Positions 4,215 through 57,098 of a DNA stretch of 64,000 bases are shown here, piece after piece. The DNA is from Eubacteriales bacterium. Its GTDB lineage: Bacteria > Bacillota > Clostridia > Christensenellales > UMGS416. The notes beneath the pieces were generated by a model. It worked only from the letters and a program-made list of their open reading frames with translations. It was not told the origin of the DNA and ran no database searches. The stretch spans positions 1 through 64,000 of the forward strand of contig JBFLKU010000029.1 of assembly GCA_040883315.1 (NCBI GenBank). Direction: 5' to 3'. Within the stretch, counting starts at the first letter, position 1; the number at the start of each line of letters is the position of its first letter. A program made the position numbers and the translations under genes.

Positions 4215-5033
4215 ATGAGATTTGTAACCGACAACAATTTTGCAAAAAAGCATGCAGAGGAACAATACAAAATAGCCGAAGACTACTATGAAAACGGTGA
4301 GTATGAGCTGGCTGTGAAGTATTTTAAGAATGCTGCCAAATCCGGACACGCAAAATCACAAAACAAGCTAGGCATATGCTACGCCACAGGCAGAGGAGTG
4401 GTGCAGAGCTATTATAATGCCCTGCAAAGCTATATGCAGGCGGCAGAGGCAGGATACGCTGGGGCAATACACAACGTCGGCCTTTGCTACTATCATGGCT
4501 ACGGCGTAGAAAAATCCTACCCTACAGCTTTAGTATACTTCAGACAGGCTGCTGAAATGGGCTACGCAAAATCTCAATATAATCTCGCCTGCTGCTACTC
4601 CGAGGGCAAGGGAGTGCAAAAGGACGAAAAAACGGCATTTGAATGGTACAAAAGTGCCGCTAGCCAAGGCGACGCCAACGCACAGTATAGCCTAGGCGTG
4701 TGCTACCAAAACGGGCTGGGAACAGAGCCCGACTACAAAAAGGCAATAAAATGGTATGAAAACGCAGCAGAGAATGACGACGCAGTGGCAATGTATAACC
4801 TTGGCTGCATGTATAATATCGGCGGCGAAGCCGAGCAGGACGACGACATGGCACATGAATACTTCGCAAAATCTGCAGAGCTGGGATATGCTCCTGCAAT
4901 GTATAATCTAGGAATGTGCTATGAACACGGCGTTGGGGTTGACGCGGACATGGATGTTGCATTAAAATGGTACAAAAAGGCAGCCGACCTAGGCGACGAA
5001 CTGGCAGCCGAAAAACTGAATGAACTGGAGTAA
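4215..5033 (+). CDS. Sel1-repeat (SLR/TPR-like) protein
   Basis: Repeated ~36-aa units '...KSQ(N/Y)(K/N)LG(I/V)CY..G.GV..(D/S)Y..A..WY.KAA..G.A.AQY.LG.CY'. GGAGGG RBS 7 nt before ATG 4215. Confidence 0.85.
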   Translation: MRFVTDNNFAKKHAEEQYKIAEDYYENGEYELAVKYFKNAAKSGHAKSQNKLGICYATGRGVVQSYYNALQSYMQAAEAGYAGAIHNVGLCYYHGYGVEKSYPTALVYFRQAAEMGYAKSQYNLACCYSEGKGVQKDEKTAFEWYKSAASQGDANAQYSLGVCYQNGLGTEPDYKKAIKWYENAAENDDAVAMYNLGCMYNIGGEAEQDDDMAHEYFAKSAELGYAPAMYNLGMCYEHGVGVDADMDVALKWYKKAADLGDELAAEKLNELE

Positions 5034-5074: not shown

Positions 5075-5911
5075 GTGAGCACAAAGGCAAGGCTGATTGA
5101 TTTGGCTATTATAATTGTGCTGCTACTCACCGGGCTATACAGAGGGCCTGTGACAAGAAACTACAATGTAGAATCCGACAAAATACAAAACGAAATAACA
5201 ATAGCTGTGGCGGCAGACCTGCACAATCAGTTTGTGGGCGAAGACCAGCAAAAGCTGATAAAAAGGCTGGAAAAGGCACAGCCGGATATCATACTGATGC
5301 CGGGAGACATGACCAACTCCCCTTATGCAATAGACGGCATGGTCAGCTTTATGAAGCAGGCGGCAGAGATAGCCCCCTGCTACTATGTGATAGGCAACCA
5401 TGAATACTGGAGCGGTGAGTACCAGAAAATATTAGACATAGTGGAGCAAACAGGCGTGGTGGTGCTGCGCAGCGAGATGACACAGCTAGATATAGCGGGC
5501 AGCACAATAGAGCTATACGGAGTAGATGACTGGGATGCGAATATATGGGATGCCACATACAAAGAAAAAAACTGGGCTGCTCATCTGGATGAGATGTGGA
5601 CAGAAAATGATGAAAACACCTTCAGAATATTGATGAGCCACCGCCCGGAGCGAGTGGAAGACTATAAAGAATATGAATACGACCTGATAGTATCCGGGCA
5701 TGCCCACGGCGGACAGGTGCGGATTCCGTTTTTTTTAAATGGGCTGTATGCACCCGACCAAGGATGGTTCCCCAAATATGCAGGCGGCGAATACCAAATA
5801 TCTGATGCCACCACAATGATTGTGAGCCGCGGCATATATAATTACCCCAATATGCCAAGAATATATAACCCATCGGAAATTGTTATAATAACAATTTCCG
5901 GAAACAATTAA
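5075..5911 (+). CDS. Metallophosphoesterase (calcineurin-like phosphoesterase), membrane-anchored
   Basis: Motifs 'GDMTN', 'GNHEY', 'SGHAHGG', with an N-terminal TM segment. GTG start. The last about 12 codons are encoded by the first palindrome of the downstream repeat array. Confidence 0.8.
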   Translation: MSTKARLIDLAIIIVLLLTGLYRGPVTRNYNVESDKIQNEITIAVAADLHNQFVGEDQQKLIKRLEKAQPDIILMPGDMTNSPYAIDGMVSFMKQAAEIAPCYYVIGNHEYWSGEYQKILDIVEQTGVVVLRSEMTQLDIAGSTIELYGVDDWDANIWDATYKEKNWAAHLDEMWTENDENTFRILMSHRPERVEDYKEYEYDLIVSGHAHGGQVRIPFFLNGLYAPDQGWFPKYAGGEYQISDATTMIVSRGIYNYPNMPRIYNPSEIVIITISGNN

Positions 5912-6430
5912 TAACCTAAAACTGCTATCACTTCCACATGCCTGCAAAATTTATTCGTAAGAATAAATGCAAGTGCTAGCAGGCTGGATGGCGTGGAATA
6001 CACTAAAGCACAGTGGAAATCGTGATTATCACGATTTCCGGAAACAACTAAACTATCGAAACCAATATCATCTTCCACATGCCTGCAAAATTTATTCGTA
6101 AGAATAAATGCAAATGCTAGCAGGCTGGATGGCTTGGAATACACTAAAGCACAGAGGGAAATTGTTATAATAACAATTTCCGGAAACAATTAATAAACTA
6201 GGATAGCTATCATCTTCCACATGCCTGCAAAATTTATTCGTAAGAATAAATGCAAATGCTAGCAGGCTGGATAGAGTGGAATACACTAAAGCACAGTGGA
6301 AATCGTGATTATCACGATTTCCGAAAACAATTAATAAACTAAAACAACTATCACTCCCCCATGCCTGCAAAATTTATTCGCAAGAATAAATGCAAAAAGC
6401 TAGCAGACCGGATAAAAGACTTATAAGGCA
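5875..6430. repeat. Tandem array of a ~141-bp structured repeat (about 4 units plus a leading partial unit)
   Basis: Unit starts at 5901, 6041, 6183 and 6324 (period 140-142). Each unit carries CATGCCTGCA, the hairpin ATTTATTCgtaaGAATAAAT, GCAGGCTGGAT..AGCACAG and a perfect 25-nt palindrome GGAAAT[CGTGATtATCACG or TGTTATaATAACA]ATTTCC. Confidence 0.85.
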
Positions 6431-16173: not shown

Positions 16174-16419
16174 ATGAGTACTAATAAAAAATTCGCGTTA
16201 AAATGTAGTGTTTGTGGCAATATTAATTTTGAATATGATGAAAAATTATACTCATCTATTACAGAGGCAAGTAAAGTAAAATGTACTATTTGCAACAAAG
16301 AATATTCAAAAAAAGAATTAGAAGATGCTAACTTGAATTTAATTAGAGAGGAAGTAATTGAGTTATCAAAAGATGAACTTAAAAGAGCTCTAAAGAATTC
16401 AGGATTCAAGATTAAATAA
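16174..16419 (+). CDS. Small zinc-ribbon protein (2x CxxC) with a C-terminal coiled-coil, AT-rich cassette gene 1
   Basis: 'KCSVCGN...KVKCTICNK'. GGAGG RBS. Very low GC. Confidence 0.55.
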   Translation: MSTNKKFALKCSVCGNINFEYDEKLYSSITEASKVKCTICNKEYSKKELEDANLNLIREEVIELSKDELKRALKNSGFKIK

Positions 16420-16429
16420 GGAGATAAAA

Positions 16430-16960
16430 ATGTCATTTGATTGGCAAATTTCAGTTGGAGATATTATCGCATTTGTATCACTAATTGGTTCAATAATCAT
16501 GTTTGTTCTTACTACAATTAAGCAAACCAAGAGTAAAAGTAATGCTGAGGGAGCAAGCTCTTTCAATGATGCTGCTAAGAAATATTACGAATTAATGGTA
16601 GATATTACACCAAAGCTTCTGAATAGAACTAAGGTAGAAGAAAAAAAGGAAAAAGCAGAATGCGATGCAGCTGTTGTTAGAACGGGTAAGTCAAAATGGG
16701 TGATTAAAATATTTAATAAAGGCAATTCTAATGCTAATAATGTCGCTTTTAAATATTTATCCGAAGACGGTCCCGCAATTATAGGCTCAGTTAAAGAAAT
16801 TTTCCCAATTGAGTTAATTGAGCCACAAAAAAATGTAGACTATCATTTTATGGTATTTATGAGCACTAAAAGCTCTAGTTGGAAATATGAACTTACTTGG
16901 ACAAATGATGATGGTACTCCAGGAAGCAAAAAAGGCGTAATAACCTTACCTCTAACATAA
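16430..16960 (+). CDS. Hypothetical membrane-anchored protein, AT-rich cassette gene 2
   Basis: AAGGAG RBS, one N-terminal TM and a beta-rich C-terminal domain. 10-nt gap from gene 1. Confidence 0.55.
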   Translation: MSFDWQISVGDIIAFVSLIGSIIMFVLTTIKQTKSKSNAEGASSFNDAAKKYYELMVDITPKLLNRTKVEEKKEKAECDAAVVRTGKSKWVIKIFNKGNSNANNVAFKYLSEDGPAIIGSVKEIFPIELIEPQKNVDYHFMVFMSTKSSSWKYELTWTNDDGTPGSKKGVITLPLT

Positions 16961-16982: not shown

Positions 16983-17048
16983 ATGAACTGAGGGATTTTC
17001 AAGGGACAAGTCCCTTGAACAGGGCATGGGGCAGAGCCCCATAACAAT
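16983..17048 (+). repeat. Dispersed double-hairpin element, copy A
   Basis: ATGAACTGAGGGAT..CAAGGGACaaGTCCCTTG..GGGGCAGAGCCCC. Homologous to copies at 39491 and 58371. Confidence 0.5.
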
Positions 17049-17128: not shown

Positions 17129-17704
17129 CTATTCCTTAATCAAATCCTTCCAATACACATGTCCATATTCAAATTCATTAATCTTTACAAACCCGGTCTT
17201 TTCATACATGCCCACTGTGCCCCTATAGTGCTTTTGACTGAATCCATCTGCTTTTATAGGCAGTGCCATTATGGCATCAAAACCCTGATTTTTAAAATCC
17301 TGTATTGCCGCATCCAGCAGGCTTGATGCTACGCCCATGTTTCTGTATTCCGGATGAATAACATAGCATATCACTATGCCTACCTTTTTGTCGCCTACTA
17401 CATCTGAAACATAAGGATGCAGCCGCTTGTAGCTGCTCCAGTGGTTGGCATTCAGCCAGCCGATGCACTTTTCACCTTCGTATGCCAAAAATCCCGTCAT
17501 CTCGCCGGCATCTATTGCATCTATCGTTTCTTTTTTATTGGTCTCCCCTGTTCTTTGCTTCCAGTCGTCCATGTCTGTATCCAGATGATAGAACCTGCAG
17601 AAGCACGTAGAATAAAATGGCTCGTGGCTGAAATCCAGATTTTCATAATACTCCGCGAAATCTTTGCCCATGCCTTTTTTCACCTTTGTTATTTTTATAT
17701 CCAT
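17129..17704 (-). CDS. GNAT-family N-acetyltransferase
   Basis: 'IHPEYRNMGVASSLLDAAI' acetyl-CoA binding motif A. Confidence 0.85.
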   Translation of the reverse strand: MDIKITKVKKGMGKDFAEYYENLDFSHEPFYSTCFCRFYHLDTDMDDWKQRTGETNKKETIDAIDAGEMTGFLAYEGEKCIGWLNANHWSSYKRLHPYVSDVVGDKKVGIVICYVIHPEYRNMGVASSLLDAAIQDFKNQGFDAIMALPIKADGFSQKHYRGTVGMYEKTGFVKINEFEYGHVYWKDLIKE

Positions 17705-19234: not shown

Positions 19235-19441
19235 ATGATTATAGTACGTCTGGACAAAATGATGGCCGACCGAAAGATTTCATTAAATGAGCTTTCAGAG
19301 AAAGTAGGGCTTTCCAATGTGAATCTTTCTTTGCTGAAAACCGGCAAGGTGAAAGGGATCCGCTTCAATACACTGGATGCAATCTGCGAGACATTGGACT
19401 GTACACCAGGAGATATTTTGGAATACGAAAAGGAACTTTGA
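19235..19441 (+). CDS. XRE-family helix-turn-helix transcriptional regulator (YozG-like)
   Basis: 'ISLNELSEKVGLSNVNLSLLKTGKVKGIRFNTLDAICETLDCTPGDIL'. Confidence 0.8.
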   Translation: MIIVRLDKMMADRKISLNELSEKVGLSNVNLSLLKTGKVKGIRFNTLDAICETLDCTPGDILEYEKEL

Positions 19442-19456
19442 GTATTATAAAATATC

Positions 19457-19775
19457 GAAAACAATTATCAACAAAAATATCTATAGGCTACTCATGCCTG
19501 AATGGTTAATTCCTTGGAATTAACATCACATTAGTGATTGCAGGCTGAATAGCATAGATTTAGTAAAAAGCATAGTAGATATCCTAGAATATGAAAGAGA
19601 ATCTTGAATGTTCTAGATATCACAAAACAATTATCAACAAAAACATCTATGGGCTACTCATGCCTGCATGGTTAATTCCCTGGAATTAACATCACATTAG
19701 TGATTGCAGACTGGATAGCACAGATTTAGCAAAAAGCTTACAGATATCCTATAGCATGTTCTAGATATCACAATA
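19457..19775. repeat. Two tandem copies (167 and 152 bp) of the same structured repeat family as 5875-6430
   Basis: Shared 5' 'AAAACAATTAtcAAcaAAAAcATCTAT..CTCATGCCTG(C/A)ATGG' and 'TTGCAG(G/A)CTG(G/A)ATAGCA(C/T)AG'. Internal perfect palindromes GTTAATTCCttGGAATTAAC and ATCACattaGTGAT. Confidence 0.8.
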
Positions 19776-25653: not shown

Positions 25654-26454
25654 CTATATGTTAAGGTTTTTTCTTTTGAATATATAAGCTGATAGAGCGA
25701 ATATGCACGCAGCCACAAAAAGAAGAACCAGCGACAATATTAAACCATAAGGAATATTATTGAGTATCTTGTTTGTATCTAGAAGTGTATATGGCGACAT
25801 ATATTTGAAGAACTCAACCCCGCTTCCAATCTCGGAAATAATCTTAAGCATTACAAACAGCACCGGTATGCCTGCCCCGAATGCCAGCGAATACTTGGCA
25901 TCATTAAATATGCATGATGACAAAAAGCTGACAGACCCAACTGCAATGAGCAATAGCAGAGTGACTAAGTTTAAAACCAAGAAACTGCCAATTTCCAGAT
26001 GCCCCGGCCACAGGATAGCGCATAGCACTACAATTATAGATGTAATAAATCCCAAGAGAGCAGTAGTAGAGAGAATAAAATATGCAGCCTGTGTTGTGAT
26101 TATTTTTCCTCTGGTATTAGGTGTGGATAGCAAATATGCCATTGAGCCTTTGTCAACATGTCCAGCAACCAAAGAGTTCGCAGCTATAATGGTATATATC
26201 AGCGGAAAAACCAGCAGAATAAACCCATAAAAATAGCTTGCAAGGTATGTAGTCAAATTTGTTCCTAGTCCGTCAAAGCCAAAAGCTTTTACCATGCCTT
26301 CGGGCATCATGCTGAATACAGCCTGTATTGATGCTGCATCTTCCGGATTAAACATTGCTATTGCAGCAGATACATATATCATTATCATAAATAAGATAGC
26401 GGCAAAAGGAATCCAGTTAAATTTAATATTAGCTTTCAATAATGTGCTATTCAT
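25654..26454 (-). CDS. ABC-2 family transporter permease
   Basis: Six-TM ABC-2 topology, directly downstream of the ATPase with a 1-nt junction. Confidence 0.8.
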   Translation of the reverse strand: MNSTLLKANIKFNWIPFAAILFMIMIYVSAAIAMFNPEDAASIQAVFSMMPEGMVKAFGFDGLGTNLTTYLASYFYGFILLVFPLIYTIIAANSLVAGHVDKGSMAYLLSTPNTRGKIITTQAAYFILSTTALLGFITSIIVVLCAILWPGHLEIGSFLVLNLVTLLLLIAVGSVSFLSSCIFNDAKYSLAFGAGIPVLFVMLKIISEIGSGVEFFKYMSPYTLLDTNKILNNIPYGLILSLVLLFVAACIFALSAYIFKRKNLNI

Positions 26455-27339
26455 TTATTTATCCTCCTTTGAACTATAGTATTTCATAAAGGCGTTCTCC
26501 AGTGACATCTGCTGAGAATCCAGAGAAATAACATCACACTGCAGCAGCATTTTATAAAAATCCTTAAATGGATAAACTGTAGATATTTTCACCGTGTTCT
26601 CGTTAACCTTTTCCGACTCAAATTCACTTTTCAAGATGAAATCTACATCTTTGCTGCTTCCTAAAGTCACCAAATATGTTTTTGTCTTTTGAGCTATTAG
26701 TTCCTTTACATCTTCAATTGCAGCAATACGACCATCTTTAATAATTCCTACTCTGCTGCAGGATTTCTGCACCTCTTCGAAAATATGAGATGACATCAGT
26801 ATGGTCTTTCCTTTTTTGTTTTCTTCGTCTATCAATTCAGAAAATTCAATCTGCATCAGTGGATCCAGCCCGCTTGTTGGTTCGTCCAGAATATATACAT
26901 CCGGATCATGCATAAACGCAGCAATAATTCCTAGCTTTTGTTTCATTCCCTTGGACATCTTTTTAATTTTGCCGCTCGTATCCAAATCAAAGCGTTCTAT
27001 AAGCGAATCCATACGAGTGAAATCCTTCATGCATCGCATATCGCCCATAAATTTCAAAAATTCTATGCCGTTCATTGAATCCAGCAGATTCATTTCACCC
27101 GGCAGATAGCCCACCATTTTTTGAATTTCGCAGGCATCTTTCCAGCAGTCGAGTCCGTTGATTCGGCAGCTGCCCTCAGCAGGGGCAACAAAGCCCAGAA
27201 GGCTTCTGATGGTTGTTGTTTTTCCTGCGCCGTTTGGCCCCAAATAGCCAAATACTTCACCCTTTTTCACACTGAATGTTACATCATAAATCCCCTTTTT
27301 GCTCGGATAGACATAATTCAAACCGTTTATCTCTATCAT
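26455..27339 (-). CDS. ABC transporter ATP-binding protein
   Basis: Walker A 'GPNGAGKTT', signature 'LSKGMKQK', Walker B 'ILDEPTSGLD'. Confidence 0.9.
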   Translation of the reverse strand: MIEINGLNYVYPSKKGIYDVTFSVKKGEVFGYLGPNGAGKTTTIRSLLGFVAPAEGSCRINGLDCWKDACEIQKMVGYLPGEMNLLDSMNGIEFLKFMGDMRCMKDFTRMDSLIERFDLDTSGKIKKMSKGMKQKLGIIAAFMHDPDVYILDEPTSGLDPLMQIEFSELIDEENKKGKTILMSSHIFEEVQKSCSRVGIIKDGRIAAIEDVKELIAQKTKTYLVTLGSSKDVDFILKSEFESEKVNENTVKISTVYPFKDFYKMLLQCDVISLDSQQMSLENAFMKYYSSKEDK

Positions 27340-38166: not shown

Positions 38167-38311
38167 TATAAATTTTAATGTTTTTTTGCGAATTTTTTTT
38201 AGTATTTTAATGTTTTCCGTACAAAATATCAATATATTTGATATTTCAGCTTGACAATACTTTAATTATTTGATATGTTGTTAAAAAATATTAAATATAT
38301 TGGAGATAAAG

Positions 38312-39490
38312 ATGAAGATATTAAAATTAACGGGAAAAGTACTTTTAGGGATATTCTCCTTATTAATTATAGCAGTAGGTGTGTTTTTGGCTGTGAACGT
38401 AGACTTTTCAAATCCAGATGACCTGCAGACATTCCTAGACAATAAAAGCAGGAAACTAGATGTAGCCGGCATGGCATTTGCCCTGGTAGAGGGAGATGAG
38501 ATGACGCAATTCTATTCATACGGCTATGCGGACATAGCGGAGCAAACCCCCATCACTGAGGACACCATTTTTCAAATGGCTTCCGTCTCAAAGACGGTGA
38601 CAGGCACTGCGATAATGCAGCTTGCAGATGCAGGCAAAATAGATATTGATGAGGATATAAACACCTATCTGCCATTCGAGGTGCATAATCCGAATCACCC
38701 GGACGCAGCAATCACCACACGAATGCTGCTGACCCACACATCATCCATAATAGACAACTGGGATGTGTATGATTCATTCTACACCATCGATGCAGGCGGC
38801 GGCGACCCAACTATCAGCTTGGCAGAATTCAACGAAGGATATCTGACAGAAGACGGCGAATACTACGATGCCGCTATGAATTTTTCTCCTGATACACCCG
38901 GCACATACTATGAATACTCCAACTGCGGCTATGCACTGCTAGGATATATACTAGAGTGCGTGACAGGCACAGATTTCAATATTTACTGCAACGAAAATAT
39001 ATTCACCCCACTAGGCATGGACAGCACCAGATGGTTTTTGCACGAGACAGATTTAAGCAGGCTGGCAAAGCCACACGAGGGCGAAAATGCACTACCCTAC
39101 TATAGCTTTGCAACATACCCGGACGGCTGCCTAAGAACATCCGCCAGCGACTACAGCAAATTCCTATCCATGTATATGAATGGCGGCAAGCTAGGCGGCG
39201 TGAGAATACTGGAGCAAAGCACAGTGGAGAATATGTTGAAACCACAGGTAGCTGATTTATATGAAAACCAAGGGCTGACGTGGGATTTGAAAGTGCCGGA
39301 GGAAATATTTATTAAATGCGATAGCTACGTATTCGGGCACAGCGGCGGCGACCCGGGAGTATCCACCATGGTGATGTTTAATCCAGAAACACAAAAGGCA
39401 GCTATTTTTCTGATAAACAGCGATGTGGAGCTGAAAGAGCTGATTACATACAGGCAGATAATCCAGCGCATGGTGGCGGAGATAGGATAA
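38312..39490 (+). CDS. Serine hydrolase of the beta-lactamase/PBP4*-like family, membrane-anchored
   Basis: 'FQMASVSKTVTG' SxxK active-site motif. N-terminal TM. GGAG RBS before ATG 38312. Confidence 0.75.
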   Translation: MKILKLTGKVLLGIFSLLIIAVGVFLAVNVDFSNPDDLQTFLDNKSRKLDVAGMAFALVEGDEMTQFYSYGYADIAEQTPITEDTIFQMASVSKTVTGTAIMQLADAGKIDIDEDINTYLPFEVHNPNHPDAAITTRMLLTHTSSIIDNWDVYDSFYTIDAGGGDPTISLAEFNEGYLTEDGEYYDAAMNFSPDTPGTYYEYSNCGYALLGYILECVTGTDFNIYCNENIFTPLGMDSTRWFLHETDLSRLAKPHEGENALPYYSFATYPDGCLRTSASDYSKFLSMYMNGGKLGGVRILEQSTVENMLKPQVADLYENQGLTWDLKVPEEIFIKCDSYVFGHSGGDPGVSTMVMFNPETQKAAIFLINSDVELKELITYRQIIQRMVAEIG

Positions 39491-39563
39491 TAAATGAACT
39501 AAAAGGAATATGGAGGCTTTGCCTCCATACCTCCATTTAAGGGACTAGTCCCTTAAAAATCCC
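39491..39563 (+). repeat. Dispersed double-hairpin element, copy B
   Basis: AAATGAACTAAAAGGAAT..GGAGGCtttGCCTCC..TTAAGGGACtaGTCCCTTAA. Confidence 0.4.
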
Positions 39564-39674
39564 AAAAATCTCATTCTATATGCCTATCTTTTTGTGCTCG
39601 CTTTATTTTTCCTTAATTGCTGATATAATATAAGTATAAGTGAAATATTTTAATATTAAGGAATGAGGTACAAA

Positions 39675-40136
39675 ATGTTTAAAATATTTAAGAAGCAAAA
39701 TAAAAAGGATAATCAACTGCCAAAATCTACGCAGCAGATACTAAGCGAGACATTTACCAACCTGATAGCTGCTTTTGATAAAGATGCAAAAAAACTTAGC
39801 CCGCCTGATTTTAATCTATGTCTTATTGAAATACTAGAAATGGAAGTGAACAACGGCGGATTCAATTTGTATTTCGTCAATTCATATGGCGGCTACATAC
39901 AGCAAACTATCGATGCACTGGATACAATAGGCTCTAAAGTTTTTAAGGAAATTTTACAAAAGGCAAAAAAACTATATCCCAGCGATTCCATATCAGAAGA
40001 CAGGTCGGAAAGAGTGGAGCTAATTATGGACTCAGAGGGACTTTTTGAAAAACTAGACAGAGAATTTTATGCAGCCTACAGCAAGGAAGACATACACCAG
40101 ATGCTTTTAGATTATTATAATAAGCATAAAAAATAG
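39675..40136 (+). CDS. DUF4375-like protein
   Basis: 'EVNNGGFNLYFVNSYG' motif. GAGG RBS before ATG 39675. Confidence 0.45.
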   Translation: MFKIFKKQNKKDNQLPKSTQQILSETFTNLIAAFDKDAKKLSPPDFNLCLIEILEMEVNNGGFNLYFVNSYGGYIQQTIDALDTIGSKVFKEILQKAKKLYPSDSISEDRSERVELIMDSEGLFEKLDREFYAAYSKEDIHQMLLDYYNKHKK

Positions 40137-40143
40137 CACATTA

Positions 40144-40175
40144 AAAGAGACCGTTTAAAACCGGTCTCTTTTTTC
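40144..40175. terminator. Bidirectional intrinsic terminator
   Basis: AGAGACCG-tttaaaa-CCGGTCTCT then TTTTT. Confidence 0.75.
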
Positions 40176-42212: not shown

Positions 42213-43205
42213 TCATTTCTGGTTTCCAAACAGCATATCTATCATTGCCCGCTTTATCTCTTGAGTAGATGAATATTCATTAGAATACGGGGATATAGTA
42301 AACTGAATTATGTATTTTTCAGAAGTCGCTACTAGTTCATAGTCATGTTTAGAATAATACAGTTCAAATTCCTCCTCACCCATCTTGTAGTTCCCAATAT
42401 AGTTATAAAAAACTGAATCATCGCGGTTTCCTACATGTTGAAAAATATAATCAATTCGTGCCCTATTATGATCAGTTATCAAATAACTGCGTATACTGGC
42501 TGACATTTCAGTATTATAAATGCTAATATCCTTGTTGCCGCTAAACATAAGACCAAACCAATACTCTGGAAGATTAAACTCTAAATCATAAAACTGTATG
42601 GTTATATTCTCAGCCGCCGGCATATCAGCAGTGTTATCGTCTACTTTTATCATATTAGTTATTTTATTGTAAAGCTCCAGCTGAATATCCTCAAAGTCCA
42701 ACACTTCGCCTTCGCCACGCACCAATGTATTATACATATCAATAACTAAAAATCTGTCTTCCAGCTCAATCAAAGTACCAAGCCCCGCCATATAATAGGT
42801 ATCATAATTAATCAGTGTCTTATAGATATAGTGCCTTTGCAGAGCGTTATATCCATCAATTTCCGCCGAGTATATTTCCGAGTATTCGCCGGGATACAAA
42901 TCCTTGAATATCATATCCATCATTTGGTCTTGGTTGAACGCAAAGTCTTTGTGTATATAATAATAGTTTATAATGGGTTTTTCTGATGTTTCTCTGTAGT
43001 CATTACTATCTATAACCATAAAATTAAATGGCACACTAATGACTATATTATCATCTTTTACTTTTTTGTATATTAGGTTTGTGTTCTGCCCTACTAAAAG
43101 AAATATCAGAGCCAATACCAATAGTATCAGCAACATTACCAGCAATAGCCCAATGTCTATCTTCTTTTCTTCTTTATTTATGTTCTCTTCCATGTGCTTC
43201 TCCAA
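42213..43205 (-). CDS. Membrane-anchored secreted protein, paralog family member
   Basis: N-terminal 35 aa identical to the 43327 gene. 'YMAGLGTLIELEDRFLVIDMYN'. Confidence 0.6.
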   Translation of the reverse strand: MEKHMEENINKEEKKIDIGLLLVMLLILLVLALIFLLVGQNTNLIYKKVKDDNIVISVPFNFMVIDSNDYRETSEKPIINYYYIHKDFAFNQDQMMDMIFKDLYPGEYSEIYSAEIDGYNALQRHYIYKTLINYDTYYMAGLGTLIELEDRFLVIDMYNTLVRGEGEVLDFEDIQLELYNKITNMIKVDDNTADMPAAENITIQFYDLEFNLPEYWFGLMFSGNKDISIYNTEMSASIRSYLITDHNRARIDYIFQHVGNRDDSVFYNYIGNYKMGEEEFELYYSKHDYELVATSEKYIIQFTISPYSNEYSSTQEIKRAMIDMLFGNQK

Positions 43206-43326: not shown

Positions 43327-44322
43327 CTATTCCCCGAAAATCATCTCTAAAAGTGCCTGCTTTGGCACCTCATCCGCTATATAATCCAATTCATAGCTGT
43401 ATAGCTTTATAATAAAATAGCATTTGTCAGAGACAGCCACTATCTCCTTTCCATTGTCTATGAAAACCGTAAATGGTTCTCCGTCCAGCATGTATTCGCC
43501 TATATATTCATCGTCGTTAACAAGGTCTATGTTTTCTTTTTTATTAATATAATATTCAGTTACAACGTTTTCTGTTTTCTGAACTGCATGCCCGATAAGC
43601 ATAGCATATGAAAATTCATCATTATTAAAGCTTATATTCACTTTGCTGCTCATGAATACACTCCAATACCCAGGCAATGTAATATCCAGCCCTGCAAAGT
43701 TTACTACTGTATCGTCCGGTTCATGCATATTCGCAGTGTTGTCATGTATTTTTAGTGTGTCCATTATTTTATTATAAAAATCCAGTTGGATATCCTCCAG
43801 ATTCATGGTTTCGCCCGTTTCTACATCCACTTTTTCATAAACATTGATCACTAGGAATCTATCTTCCAGCTCTATCAGCGTAGCCAGCCCTGCCACATAA
43901 TAAAACCCCGAAATTTTCCCGCTATGGTCTAAATATATGTAATTATACTGAAGAGCATCATAGCCATCTAGCTTTCTTTTATAGATATCAGAATACTTCC
44001 ATTCATCATAAAGAATGTCTTTCATCAGAACGTTCACTATTTGCTCTTTTGTCAGCCCATAGTCCTTGTGGATGTAATAATAATGTATGTATCCGTCATT
44101 TTCATCTTCCGCTGCTTCATTGCTCTCAATCACCTCATAGCTGTAGGGCACACTAATGCGTATATTATCATCTTTTACTTTTTTGCGAATTGGGTTTGTG
44201 TTTTCCCCTATTAAAATGAATATCAGAGCCAATACCAATAGTATTAGCAACATTACTAGCAATAGCCCAATGTCTATCTTCTTTTCTTCTTTATTTATGT
44301 TCTCTTCCATGTGCTTCTCCAA
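43327..44322 (-). CDS. Membrane-anchored secreted protein, paralog family member
   Basis: Recent tandem duplicate of 42213-43205. Upstream region also duplicated. Confidence 0.6.
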   Translation of the reverse strand: MEKHMEENINKEEKKIDIGLLLVMLLILLVLALIFILIGENTNPIRKKVKDDNIRISVPYSYEVIESNEAAEDENDGYIHYYYIHKDYGLTKEQIVNVLMKDILYDEWKYSDIYKRKLDGYDALQYNYIYLDHSGKISGFYYVAGLATLIELEDRFLVINVYEKVDVETGETMNLEDIQLDFYNKIMDTLKIHDNTANMHEPDDTVVNFAGLDITLPGYWSVFMSSKVNISFNNDEFSYAMLIGHAVQKTENVVTEYYINKKENIDLVNDDEYIGEYMLDGEPFTVFIDNGKEIVAVSDKCYFIIKLYSYELDYIADEVPKQALLEMIFGE

Positions 44323-45095: not shown

Positions 45096-45911
45096 TTATA
45101 TTGCTAGGCTCTTTTTGTTGAATATTATAACTCCCAGCGAATATAGAGCTGCCGATGCCAGCACCAGACACAGGCTGACTATCATTACATATTTGTTGTC
45201 ATTCAGCACTTTGTCTGTGTTCAGCAAAGTATATATGCTGAAATATCTGAAAAAGTCCACCTTTTCACTGATGTCTGCCAGCATCTTGAACAAAACAAAT
45301 GCTATCGGTATGCCTGCCCCGAATGCCAGGGATGCCTTTGAGTCGCTGAATATGCACGAAGCCAAAAAGCTGATGCTGCTGACTGCGAGTATAATAAAAA
45401 GTGTTACCATATTCAGCACCAAGAATCTGCCTATTTCCAGATGCCCCGGGAATATTGCCTCCGATAGCCCAATCAGCACGCCAACCATAAACGAAAGCAT
45501 TGCAGTCAGGGATATTATCAAATATAGTGCCTGTGTCATTGCCACCTTTATTCGGGTGTTTGGTGTAGCCAAAATATAGGACATAGACCCTCTGTCTACG
45601 TGCTTGGCTATCAGATTGTTTGCAACTATGGATATATATATTATAGGAAAGACCAAAAGGATGAATCCATATAAGTACCCTGCCAAATATGTGGTCAGGT
45701 TGGTTCCCAACCCCACAAATCCAAAAGCCTTTATCATTCCCTCCGGCAGCATGTCAAACATTGCCTGCATTGCCGTTGCACTCTCCGGGTCGAACATTGC
45801 TATTGCTGTGGAAACATATATCATCAGCATGCCAACTATAAAAACAAAAATACCCCAGTTGGATTTCATATTGGTTTTAAATAATGTCCAGCTCATATTA
45901 TGCCTCCTCAT
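45096..45911 (-). CDS. ABC-2 family transporter permease (paralog of 25654-26454)
   Basis: Alignable to the first permease, e.g. 'MFNPEDAASIQAVFSMMPEGMVKAFGF' versus 'MFDPESATAMQAMFDMLPEGMIKAFGF'. Confidence 0.8.
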   Translation of the reverse strand: MRRHNMSWTLFKTNMKSNWGIFVFIVGMLMIYVSTAIAMFDPESATAMQAMFDMLPEGMIKAFGFVGLGTNLTTYLAGYLYGFILLVFPIIYISIVANNLIAKHVDRGSMSYILATPNTRIKVAMTQALYLIISLTAMLSFMVGVLIGLSEAIFPGHLEIGRFLVLNMVTLFIILAVSSISFLASCIFSDSKASLAFGAGIPIAFVLFKMLADISEKVDFFRYFSIYTLLNTDKVLNDNKYVMIVSLCLVLASAALYSLGVIIFNKKSLAI

Positions 45912-46779
45912 TTTCGTAGTACTTCATAAACATATTTTCCAATGTGATGTGCTCCACTTCCAGCGACTTTACATCGCACTTTGAAAGCAGTGCATAGAAA
46001 TCATTAAATGGATATGATGCAGATATTTTCACTTTTGTCTCGCCCACTTTTTGCGTGTCGAATTTGCTATCCTCTATCAGCTTCATGTCCTTTTTCTTCC
46101 CTAGTGTCACCACAAATGTCTTGGTATTTACAGAGTCTAAATCCCCGATGTTTTGAATGGTTACAATTCTTCCATCTTTTATTATGCCTACTCTGTCGCA
46201 GGATCTCTGCACCTCTTCGAAAATATGCGAGGACATCAGTATAGTTTTCCCTCTGCTTTTCTCTTCCTTTATAAGCTCCATGAATACATTCTGCATCAGC
46301 GGATCCAATCCGCTGGTTGGCTCATCCAAAATATAAACTTTAGGGTCATGCATAAATGCAGCGATAATTCCAATTTTCTGTTTCATGCCCTTGGACATCT
46401 TCTTTATCTTGCCGCTGGCATCCAGATCGAATCTTTTTATCAGCTCTTCCTTTCGGCTGGTGTCCTTCATGCCTCTCATTTCGCCAAGGAATTTCAAAAA
46501 TTCATTCCCCGTCATATAGTCCAGCATATTCATTTCGCCGGGAAGATACCCAACCATCTTTTGCAGCTCTGCGGCATTTTTTCTGCACTCCAGACCATTT
46601 ACAACCGCACTTCCGCTTTCTGCATTGGCAAAGCCCATCAGCCCGCGTATGGTGGTAGTCTTGCCTGCGCCGTTTGGACCAAGATAGCCAAATACTTCGC
46701 CTTCAGCCACACCAAAGCTGACATCGAATATGCCCTTGCCGCTTTTGTATACCTGAGTCAGGTTGTCCACTTTTATCAT
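45898..46779 (-). CDS. ABC transporter ATP-binding protein (paralog of 26455-27339)
   Basis: Walker A 'GPNGAGKTT', 'LSKGMKQK', 'ILDEPTSGLD'. Confidence 0.9.
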   Translation of the reverse strand: MIKVDNLTQVYKSGKGIFDVSFGVAEGEVFGYLGPNGAGKTTTIRGLMGFANAESGSAVVNGLECRKNAAELQKMVGYLPGEMNMLDYMTGNEFLKFLGEMRGMKDTSRKEELIKRFDLDASGKIKKMSKGMKQKIGIIAAFMHDPKVYILDEPTSGLDPLMQNVFMELIKEEKSRGKTILMSSHIFEEVQRSCDRVGIIKDGRIVTIQNIGDLDSVNTKTFVVTLGKKKDMKLIEDSKFDTQKVGETKVKISASYPFNDFYALLSKCDVKSLEVEHITLENMFMKYYENEEA

Positions 46780-56313: not shown

Positions 56314-57087
56314 TTAAAATCCTCCGTTTTGATTTGTGCTAATTATTTCTTTTAATTTCTCTATAGTTAAAGTATCATTTCTTCTTCTGTGTATCATTCT
56401 ATGGCAATTAGAACATACTGGTACAACATTTTTTAATGCACTATCAATAAACATATTGGCATCTTGCTCTTCATATGTATATATTGGCTTTTGATGATGT
56501 ATCTCTATGTATCCATCACCTCTAGCTCCATATTTAGCTTTAAAATCAAATTTACAAGCATCACATAAAATTACGCCATTATGCGTGTAATATTCTATCG
56601 CAATATTTCTTAGTTTAGCTGACCTTTCATATACTTTATTTCTTATTGTTTTTCTGCTTCCCTCATATACAAAAATATTTTCATCATATACTAAAGGTTT
56701 TCTTTTTCTCTCGATTGAATCTGTAATCTCTACTAATGTATCTTCTATATCTATATTTTCAAAATCATTGTCTATCAAATATTCGAAAATATCTTTGTTC
56801 TGTTCAATATACTCTTTCCCTTTTTCTGTAATAGTATGCGAACCATTCCTTTGCCCTTTAATCGTTGTATAGCCTAGTTGGTCGTCAAGTTTATGATGGG
56901 ATACCAAATTCCTAACAATTTGGGTGAATCTTGCATCATTCCTACTTCCGTAGTTTTTTAAATCTTCTCCCGTTGGATTAATTAAATTTGATAATTCCAA
57001 AATCAAGTCACTAGTTTTTATATTCGGATTATTACTAATTACATACAAAGCCGGAATTACTAATTCTTTTTCAGAAACTCTAGACAT
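56314..57087 (-). CDS. HNH-family endonuclease, candidate Type II restriction endonuclease (AT-rich island)
   Basis: C-terminal 'CDAC...GYIEIHHQKPI...VVPVCSNCHRMIH' HNH. An 11-nt gap separates it from the upstream MTase gene. About 28% GC versus about 48% in the flanking DNA. Confidence 0.7.
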   Translation of the reverse strand: MSRVSEKELVIPALYVISNNPNIKTSDLILELSNLINPTGEDLKNYGSRNDARFTQIVRNLVSHHKLDDQLGYTTIKGQRNGSHTITEKGKEYIEQNKDIFEYLIDNDFENIDIEDTLVEITDSIERKRKPLVYDENIFVYEGSRKTIRNKVYERSAKLRNIAIEYYTHNGVILCDACKFDFKAKYGARGDGYIEIHHQKPIYTYEEQDANMFIDSALKNVVPVCSNCHRMIHRRRNDTLTIEKLKEIISTNQNGGF

Positions 57088-57098
57088 TATCTTCTCCT

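Follow-up and report, generated by a model that had tools for sequence, protein, structure and literature searches.

The 64,000-nucleotide stretch of Eubacteriales DNA analysed here (contig JBFLKU010000029.1; as a whole, the window) carries three short double-hairpin elements, which we call copies A, B and C, and the question that they raise is what they are and why they lie beside segments that look foreign. An earlier note on this DNA had offered a REP-like element, a small RNA (sRNA) or a recombination or integration site marking island borders. We find that the three copies belong to a repeat family found mainly in Clostridia, in which both hairpins are kept by compensatory changes and each hairpin is followed by a short tail that mirrors its 3' arm. 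Based on these results, the copies are probably diverged two-unit members of a group of dispersed, non-coding, structure-defined intergenic repeats, with a structural role in the 3' untranslated region (3' UTR) of the genes that they follow. "REP-like element" was thus the right class: the family is best filed with the REP/PIT kind of intergenic repeat, and the mechanism proposed below is one that we infer.

The three elements of about 60 nt sit where the earlier note had placed them, all in intergenic DNA, and a profile built from the copies of other genomes alone recovers exactly these three: A on the minus strand (nhmmer E-value 7e-12), B on the plus strand (1e-10) and C on the minus strand (3e-8). 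A full-length covariance model places copy A at 16989..17045 (-) with 63.7 bits (cmsearch E 1.4e-10), copy B at 39508..39566 (+) with 65.2 bits (E 7e-11) and copy C at 58378..58435 (-) with 57.7 bits (E 1.9e-9); run with its filters off, it finds no fourth copy in the window. The same model corrects the reported orientation. All three copies had been read as lying in the plus orientation, whereas it is in reverse complement that A and C line up with B(+): scores of 58-65 bits go to A(-), B(+) and C(-), which we use as the common orientation, and about 20 bits to the opposite strands, through the palindromic hairpin H1. In the common orientation the order is a GC-rich hairpin (H2), a short C-rich spacer, a second hairpin (H1, YAAGGGAY-loop-RTCCCTTR), four bases and ATCCC. 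The "different inserted GC hairpin" of copy B, GGAGGCtttGCCTCC, is the homologue of GGGGCtctGCCCC, in the same place and the same order. The ATGAAC start that had seemed common to all three is coincidental in B, where it directly follows a TAATAA stop, and in the other two copies it corresponds, in reverse complement, to the 3' extension ATCCCTnAnTTCAT.

In copy A, H2 is ATGGGGC-TCT-GCCCCAT (17042-17026, -) with the tail CCCTG (17024-17020), and H1 is TTCAAGGGAC-TT-GTCCCTTGAA (17019-16998, -) with the tail AATCCC (16997-16992). Copy B has H2 TATGGAGGC-TTT-GCCTCCATA (39509-39529, +), whose tail CCTCC (39530-39534) is a perfect parallel complement of GGAGG, and H1 TTTAAGGGAC-TA-GTCCCTTAAA (39536-39557, +) with the tail AATCCC (39558-39563). 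In copy C, H2 is GTAGGGC-TCT-GCCCTAC (58432-58416, -) with a degenerate tail, GACCTG (58415-58410), and H1 is CACAAGGGAT-TTC-ATCCCTTGTG (58409-58387, -) with the tail TATCCC (58386-58381). The H2 variants in the window are thus GGGGC-TCT-GCCCC, GGAGGC-TTT-GCCTCC and TAGGGC-TCT-GCCCTA. Copies A and C are collinear, as the earlier note had it, with differences that are compensatory in both stems, and GGGCAGAGCCC is common to these two only. The RNA folds reach -24.5 kcal/mol for A (z -3.3), -27.0 for B (z -5.4) and -29.3 for C (z -5.7), and all six strand folds consist of two adjacent hairpins (-24 to -29 kcal/mol, z -3.3 to -6.3). The H1-type motif AGGGA-N2-9-TCCCT occurs three times in the window against 0.25 expected, a count that none of 100 shuffles reached.

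The family is larger than the earlier note supposed. We scanned one genome for each of 185,579 species with the pattern AAGGGAY-N2-5-RTCCCTT-N4-ATCCC, which fits all three window copies and for which some tens of chance matches are expected; at least 119 loci match. Roughly 90% of the matches listed come from rumen and gut Clostridia, as metagenome-assembled genomes (MAGs) or isolates, among them Oscillospiraceae, Ruminococcus (including an isolate), Faecalibacterium and others. An nhmmer search over the loci listed gave 207 hits, of which 153 cover nearly the full length; a stretch of 8 kb may hold as many as six. The family consensus reads GGGGC-TCT-GCCCC-A-CCCCG-CCAAAGGGAC-NNN-GTCCCTTTGG-AATCCC; conservation is confined to about 55 nt and ends within a few nucleotides of both hairpins, and against this consensus the window copies are two-unit members with AT-shifted outer stems. 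Neither the window nor 18 canonical loci gave anything for the family in Rfam at the gathering score. The PLSDB plasmids hold no match to the family, phages gave marginal, unannotated hits, and IMG/VR contributed 13 loci only. Our searches of the literature on REP and RAYT in Clostridia and on BoxC and triplex repeats turned up no description of the family, and sequence strings matched primers only. To our knowledge, this is a widespread repeat family that is undescribed and has no Rfam model.

Its units are concatenated, two in the window and up to six or more elsewhere. In a Faecalibacterium MAG (CAYLIC010000030.1, locus L032), a 28-nt unit, CTYAAGGGC-GCT-GCCCTTRAG-AATCCCG, forms head-to-tail arrays, and the array at 4600-4800 holds six or more such triplex-type units with a run of N inside, so the repeat evidently breaks short-read assemblies. 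Near-identical copies and tandem arrays of the 28-nt unit occur at L030 as well as L032, and a MAG other than the Faecalibacterium one carries near-identical copies within a composite repeat of about 240 nt. Outside the Firmicutes we found an intergenic one-hairpin variant, GCCTCCGGCGG-SCA-AAGGGAC-NNN-GTCCCTTTGS-AATCCC, in which GCCTCCGGCGG stands directly before H1; its carriers are three Novosphingobium species (L006, L099, L116), Acidobacteriota, Desulfovibrio and Thermodesulfobacteriota (L011, L080, L021, L026). About 25 nt downstream of the Novosphingobium copies are conserved too. In Ruminococcus sp. RGIG8671 (L012, L022, L040, L044, L107), two or three hairpin units follow a conserved 5' module of about 40 nt, GACTGTTTTGAAAATTCACCCTTTGCGGAGCGCTTAAACG, and other Oscillospiraceae copies have a different 5' hairpin, GTATCGC-TCC-GCGATGAT; these differing 5' modules indicate that the family is modular.

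The stems are kept by pairing, as seen in 74 aligned copies. In both hairpins together, 98.1% of the stem cells are paired, and 173 cells are changed on both sides, as against 52 +/- 5 in shuffles (0 of 500 reached this number) and at most 19 with slid partners. The three outer pairs and the closing pair of H1, which the search pattern left free, covary cleanly (CCA/TGG, CTC/GAG, CTT/AAG, TTC/GAA, CAC/GTG, TTT/AAA). Another regularity arose without being selected for: of 296 letters in the 5' arm cores, 287 are purines, while the outer pairs flip freely. Among about 1200 stem pairs, 1178 are of the Watson-Crick type, 9 are G.T and 6 are A.C; this wobble is symmetric between the strands, and the counts (9 vs 6) do not tell which of the two is transcribed.

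A further regularity lies in the segment after each hairpin, for which the copies were not selected either. It is the mirror image of the 3' arm and hence complementary, in parallel, to the 5' arm. This relation is obeyed by at least nine different combinations of arm and tail, such as GAGG/CTCC, GGGA/CCCT, GAGGG/CTCCC, GGGAA/CCCTT and GAGAG/CTCTC; written as arm, arm and tail, they read GAGG...CCTC...CTCC, GGGA...TCCC...CCCT, GAGGG...CCCTC...CTCCC, GGGAA...TTCCC...CCCTT and GAGAG...CTCTC...CTCTC. The length of the C-run in the tail tracks that of the G-run in the arm. Parallel arm-to-tail correspondences are complementary in 93.2% of cases, with slid controls at 72% or less, and double changes number 36 against 8.0 +/- 2.5 in shuffles (0 of 500). 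The tail match is 0.84 and falls to 0.71 +/- 0.013 when tails are swapped between copies; for asymmetric arms, which are not their own mirror, the tail agrees with the mirror of the 3' arm at 0.84 and with a direct copy of it at 0.55. H1 follows the same rule, with the arm AGGG and TCCC within its AATCCC tail. A generic scan of the window for hairpins with mirror tails, which is overly strict, found four units against 0.6 in shuffles. Reading the alignment, we saw no antiparallel pairing of the tail with any nearby segment. We also considered a G-quadruplex or i-motif and rejected it, as variants of the GAGG/CCTC/CTCC type break the G and C tracts yet keep the mirror relation.

By the textbook, a triple helix requires a mirror repeat confined to a duplex of one purine and one pyrimidine strand, and a purine arm, a pyrimidine arm and a mirror pyrimidine tail form the classical intramolecular pyrimidine-motif design, with the purine-motif design on the complementary strand (PMC4666352). 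A purine 5' arm, a pyrimidine 3' arm and a co-varying mirror tail are thus the signature of a potential intrastrand triple helix. The repeats have the three blocks that mark elements of the BoxC/PIT/TM_ECO kind, which establishes triplex potential only; whether a triplex forms, and on which strand or nucleic acid, we treat as conditional.

The layout and the placement of the units suggest the following model. On the C-rich strand, a unit consists of two or three outer base pairs that vary, a homopurine arm on the 5' side, a loop of 3 nt, a homopyrimidine arm on the 3' side, a linker of 1-4 nt and a pyrimidine tail that mirrors the 3' arm. The unit can fold as a hairpin, and the tail could then turn back in the major groove to give an intrastrand triple helix; linkers of 1-3 nt fit a tail that enters the deep groove on the C-rich strand. 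That strand could form C+.G-C and T/U.A-T triples as DNA or RNA, while the G-rich strand could form G.G-C and A/T.A-T triples as DNA only. Concatenated units would multiply within genomes by a trans-acting route, and they are kept preferentially just past stop codons with the C-rich strand sense. There they may provide a stable 3'-UTR or intercistronic structure that blocks 3' exonucleases or insulates the resident gene from the sequence that follows. A bolder reading, that the triple helix itself is under selection in bacteria, with the tail lying in the major groove of the hairpin in the transcript or in transient single-stranded DNA, is speculative and we give it a minor chance of being right.

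Counting only the stop codons of open reading frames (ORFs) of at least 150 amino acids, which were chosen because their stops are unambiguous, 62 copies have a same-strand gene stop within 100 nt upstream, and 21-22 have an antisense stop within 100 nt downstream (p about 1e-5). Reduced to one copy per locus, the counts become 34 and 13 (p = 0.003); the copies then begin at a median of 21.5 nt behind the stop. All three window copies obey this rule, lying 13-92 nt past the stop codon of a same-strand gene in one reckoning; by the coordinates given above, A(-) begins 83 nt past the stop of a GNAT acetyltransferase gene (17129-17704, -), B(+) 18 nt past that of a serine-hydrolase gene of the beta-lactamase fold (38300-39490, +) and C(-) 98 nt past that of an ABC-F gene (58534-59994, -). 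This placement means that the element tends to occupy 3'-UTR or intercistronic RNA with the C-rich strand sense. The 111 downstream neighbour genes fall into 126 Pfam families, none of which occurs in more than three, and they are mostly housekeeping genes. Many family copies are then followed by a genuine intrinsic terminator.

Several observations weigh against this account, or against parts of it. The sequences used for covariation were chosen for a detectable H2 hairpin, and the H1 core was fixed by the search pattern. The gene calls at the foreign loci are crude ORF calls, and the orientation bias is about 3:1 and not absolute, so that it could partly reflect the direction of replication. 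A terminator-like hairpin lies within 130 nt downstream of about 20% of the copies, and such sites are equally frequent in antisense and nearly so upstream; near the copies they show no sense-strand enrichment. The almost pure Watson-Crick stems point less to a long-lived RNA than to young copies or a constraint acting on the two strands of the DNA. Opposite an arm A, the tail has T 47 times and A 33 times, which agrees better with a purine motif on the G-rich strand, as DNA, than with a triplex of RNA. The cores that could form triples are short, at 4-6 triplets, runs of C+.G-C are disfavoured at neutral pH, and in the window the H2 tail is poor in copy C and matches at three of four positions in copy A.

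Among known elements, the closest kind is that of the BoxC/PIT (potential intrastrand triplex)/TM_ECO repeats, known from Proteobacteria including E. coli (Hoyne et al., 2000, cited by Holder et al., 2015, PMC4666352). TM_ECO has the consensus 5'-CCCTCNCCC N3-6 GGGNGAGGG N3 GGGNGAGGG-3' in the block order Y-R-RH, and 262 proteobacterial genomes together hold 3,610 copies of it. In vitro it forms an intrastrand triplex. It lies in intergenic DNA without strand bias, acts neither as promoter nor as terminator, and occupies loci with unusually much rearrangement (PMC4666352). Clostridia and Firmicutes are not mentioned in the main text of that paper. Like these elements, the repeats described here are short (about 37-60 nt), G/C-rich, multi-copy and intergenic, with no coding capacity and no associated gene, for mobility or otherwise; they combine a purine block, its Watson-Crick pyrimidine partner and a third, mirror block, from which a one-strand triple helix is possible, and they are tied to variable loci. 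They differ from TM_ECO in block order (R-Y-H on the C-rich strand, RH-R-Y on the G-rich strand), lack the CCCTCNCCC...GGGNGAGGG consensus, have arms of 4-7 nt instead of 9, join two or more different units in tandem and live mainly in Clostridia. Moreover, where TM_ECO is nearly invariant and unbiased, the arms here vary and co-vary, and the sense strand is favoured just 3' of genes.

The likeness to the REP/BIME elements of Gammaproteobacteria is of another sort: those are imperfect palindromes of 20-40 nt, intergenic, often in 3' UTRs or between cistrons, arranged in mosaic clusters and present many times per genome. In E. coli they stabilise the upstream mRNA against 3' exonucleases. Repeated, clustered imperfect palindromes in intergenic DNA are what we find in the arrays L030 and L032. 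Unlike REP/BIME, the family has no conserved GTAG head in its consensus, no RAYT or other recurrent gene among the 111 downstream neighbours and units that run head-to-tail instead of alternating; the strict purine/pyrimidine strand asymmetry and the mirror tails of the present repeats are absent from REP/BIME. For a comparison with MITEs, non-autonomous elements that have terminal inverted repeats and lie between target-site duplications, the relevant observation is the stop of conservation within a few nucleotides of the two hairpins.

The impression that the elements mark island borders has a local basis, which we examined by comparing syntenic loci from relatives at 71-80% amino-acid identity. 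The segments next to copies A and C are indeed low in GC, at 0.286 and 0.263, where the window averages 0.393. In the window, the A locus runs from the GNAT gene through copy A to a low-GC cassette and a 236-aa gene. The cassette (16174..16960, +) is strain-specific, has a GC content of 0.29 and adjoins copy A; it holds two ORFs of 81 and 176 aa, neither in any Pfam or PADLOC family, and the end of copy A is 28 nt off the stop of the convergent 176-aa ORF (16430-16960, +). In a relative (L140), which has neither cassette nor element, the GNAT gene is followed by an ion-channel gene and then by the counterpart homologous to the 236-aa gene. At the B locus, the serine-hydrolase gene is followed by copy B and, about 100 nt further, by a strain-specific insert (39663..40172, +) made of a DMP19-like gene (PF14300, 1e-22; 39663-40136, +) and a classic intrinsic terminator (40143-40172), beyond which lies a convergent gene. 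Two relatives (L145 and L143) lack DMP19 and the element alike and have the serine-hydrolase gene, a direct intrinsic terminator and a gene homologous to the convergent one; since DMP19 stands between the serine-hydrolase gene and the position of the terminator that directly follows in the relatives, this is a single-gene insertion into a 3' UTR. The DMP19-like (DNA-mimic) gene has its own TATAAT-type promoter, and PADLOC gave no hits for it.

At the C locus, the order is the ABC-F gene, copy C, a strain-specific pair resembling a restriction-modification system (56314..58262, -; GC 0.26-0.32) and rnfC of the rnf operon. The pair consists of a type II D12 adenine methyltransferase (57099-58262, -), 118 nt downstream of copy C, and an HNH nuclease with a weak hit to a type IV restriction enzyme. 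In three relatives (L122-L124), 550 nt separate the ABC-F gene from rnfC, in a fourth (L125) an unrelated gene fills the slot, and the element is present in none; across about 80 kb of the syntenic relatives' DNA there is no family member. In all three cases, B included, the copy therefore stands precisely where a strain-specific insert meets the resident gene.

The DNA that separates copy C from the stop of the ABC-F gene (58440-58513) contains a C-rich tract, CCCAGCCCCCTAACCCCTCC (58456-58475), and after it the hairpin CCTCC-cctacaagt-GGAGG. Read on the minus strand, this gives CCTCC...GGGGAGG...GGAGGGG-TTA-GGGGG, that is, pyrimidine, purine and mirror purine blocks around a TTA loop. It may be a second, degenerate triplex-type motif reminiscent of TM_ECO, or the terminator of the ABC-F gene.

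These junctions invite the reading that the elements are where foreign DNA enters, either as att-like targets or as fragile sites whose non-B structure provokes breaks and illegitimate insertion. The position of all three copies between the 3' end of a conserved gene and a strain-specific insert is what such sites would give, as is the lack of both insert and element in the syntenic relatives, with two of the slots holding other genes in other relatives; for TM_ECO loci, too, Holder et al. (2015, PMC4666352) report more rearrangement among strains of E. coli. Beyond the window this association fails. Low GC in the flanks of 102 copies from other genomes is no more frequent than at random positions (3.9% vs 4.8%), so that the systematic flanking of low-GC insertions that the earlier note proposed to look for is not seen there, and no family recurs among the 111 downstream neighbours, which are housekeeping genes of the ordinary sort. 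Within the window, the covariance-model scan finds a copy at one border only of each insert, the 5-6 kb or so around each copy hold neither an integrase nor a transposase, and the constant orientation is to the resident gene, not to the insert. The relatives are, moreover, distant enough that many slots differ anyway. Integron attC sites (about 60-140 nt, functional as folded single strands) are likewise imperfect palindromes at the boundary of accessory cassettes, but A, B and C contain no R''/R' core sites (RYYYAAC / GTTRRRY), there is no integrase or cassette array nearby, and the neighbours in the family at large are housekeeping genes. We thus consider a role as entry sites rather improbable and an att site in particular unlikely, and the border proposal has support at the three junctions of the window but not in the family at large. 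The association with inserts may come from structure-provoked instability as for TM_ECO (PMC4666352), from co-arrival with the inserts or from a tolerance of repeats in unconstrained junctions, among which three cases cannot decide.

The placement just after genes would also suit unconventional terminators or attenuators of the upstream gene, independent of a U-tract or dependent on a factor, and, like Rho-independent terminators, the repeats are GC-rich hairpins just past stop codons: they stand in sense orientation at a median of about 21 nt, their hairpins, with -24 to -29 kcal/mol, are stable, and in the relatives an intrinsic terminator stands where the window has copy B. However, no U-run follows either hairpin in the window, where the sequences are AAAATCCCTCAG, AAAAATCCCAAAAA and TGTATCCCTAAA, or in the family consensus, where the tail is AATCCC, and "not classic terminators" was a correct judgement. 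Unlike such terminators, the repeats have two hairpins of conserved sequence with mirror tails. Termination needs neither these tails nor tandem arrays of up to six or more units, many copies themselves precede a canonical terminator, and the analogous PIT elements of E. coli were without terminator activity (cited in PMC4666352). Termination as their function is therefore unlikely, about as much so as entry of foreign DNA or slightly more. Less likely still is that they are sRNA genes transcribed from the G-rich strand, such as relatives of the Rfam Clostridiales-2 motif (RF02937). That motif is also found in Clostridia, with a G-run before a hairpin with a G-rich 5' arm and two hairpins in all, and a canonical copy aligns with it end to end on the G-rich strand (18.8 bits, E 0.02), which is the one relevant Rfam match that relaxed E-values bring up. 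This score is far under the gathering score of 58.6, the window copies have no hit to the motif, the consensus differs, and around copy A nothing relevant appears in Rfam at E <= 10. Wobble is very rare in the stems and equally so on either strand, and the copy number, tandem arrays and turnover fit a repeat rather than a gene. Short GC hairpins are common after genes, and three unrelated terminator-like hairpins might resemble one another by chance; the independent-profile E-values (3e-8 to 7e-12) and hundreds of collinear relatives in other genomes refute this.

If the triple helix were under selection, its RNA form would be a bacterial counterpart of the triple-helix stabilisers of 3' ends, and its DNA form a fragile site that captures foreign genes, which would explain three copies at insert edges. 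Potential-triplex repeats have been known mainly as one near-invariant E. coli motif, so that the third strand has so far had no evolutionary test; the co-change of arm and tail in at least nine ways gives comparative evidence for selection on a three-stranded fold, and the natural arm/tail variants form a ready set for testing in vitro. The position past stop codons and the local link to inserts lead to two hypotheses, protection of mRNA 3' ends and structure-provoked gene capture. In practice, Clostridia of rumen and gut commonly carry the family, which disrupts their assemblies (N-gaps inside arrays) and creates spurious ORFs, and as it has no Rfam model, adding one would improve annotation.

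The window contains other repeats. An intergenic tandem repeat at 5875-6413 has a period of 141 nt (3.8 copies, 85% matches) with the hairpin GGAAATTGTTATAATAACAATTTCC in each unit, and at 19408-19739 a 166-nt unit occurs in two tandem copies that are 83% identical. Two adjacent paralogous genes (42213-43205 and 43327-44322) share 87% identity over 252 nt, and two diverged paralogous two-gene blocks (25654-27339 and 45096-46779), 19.4 kb apart, are 66-71% identical in DNA.

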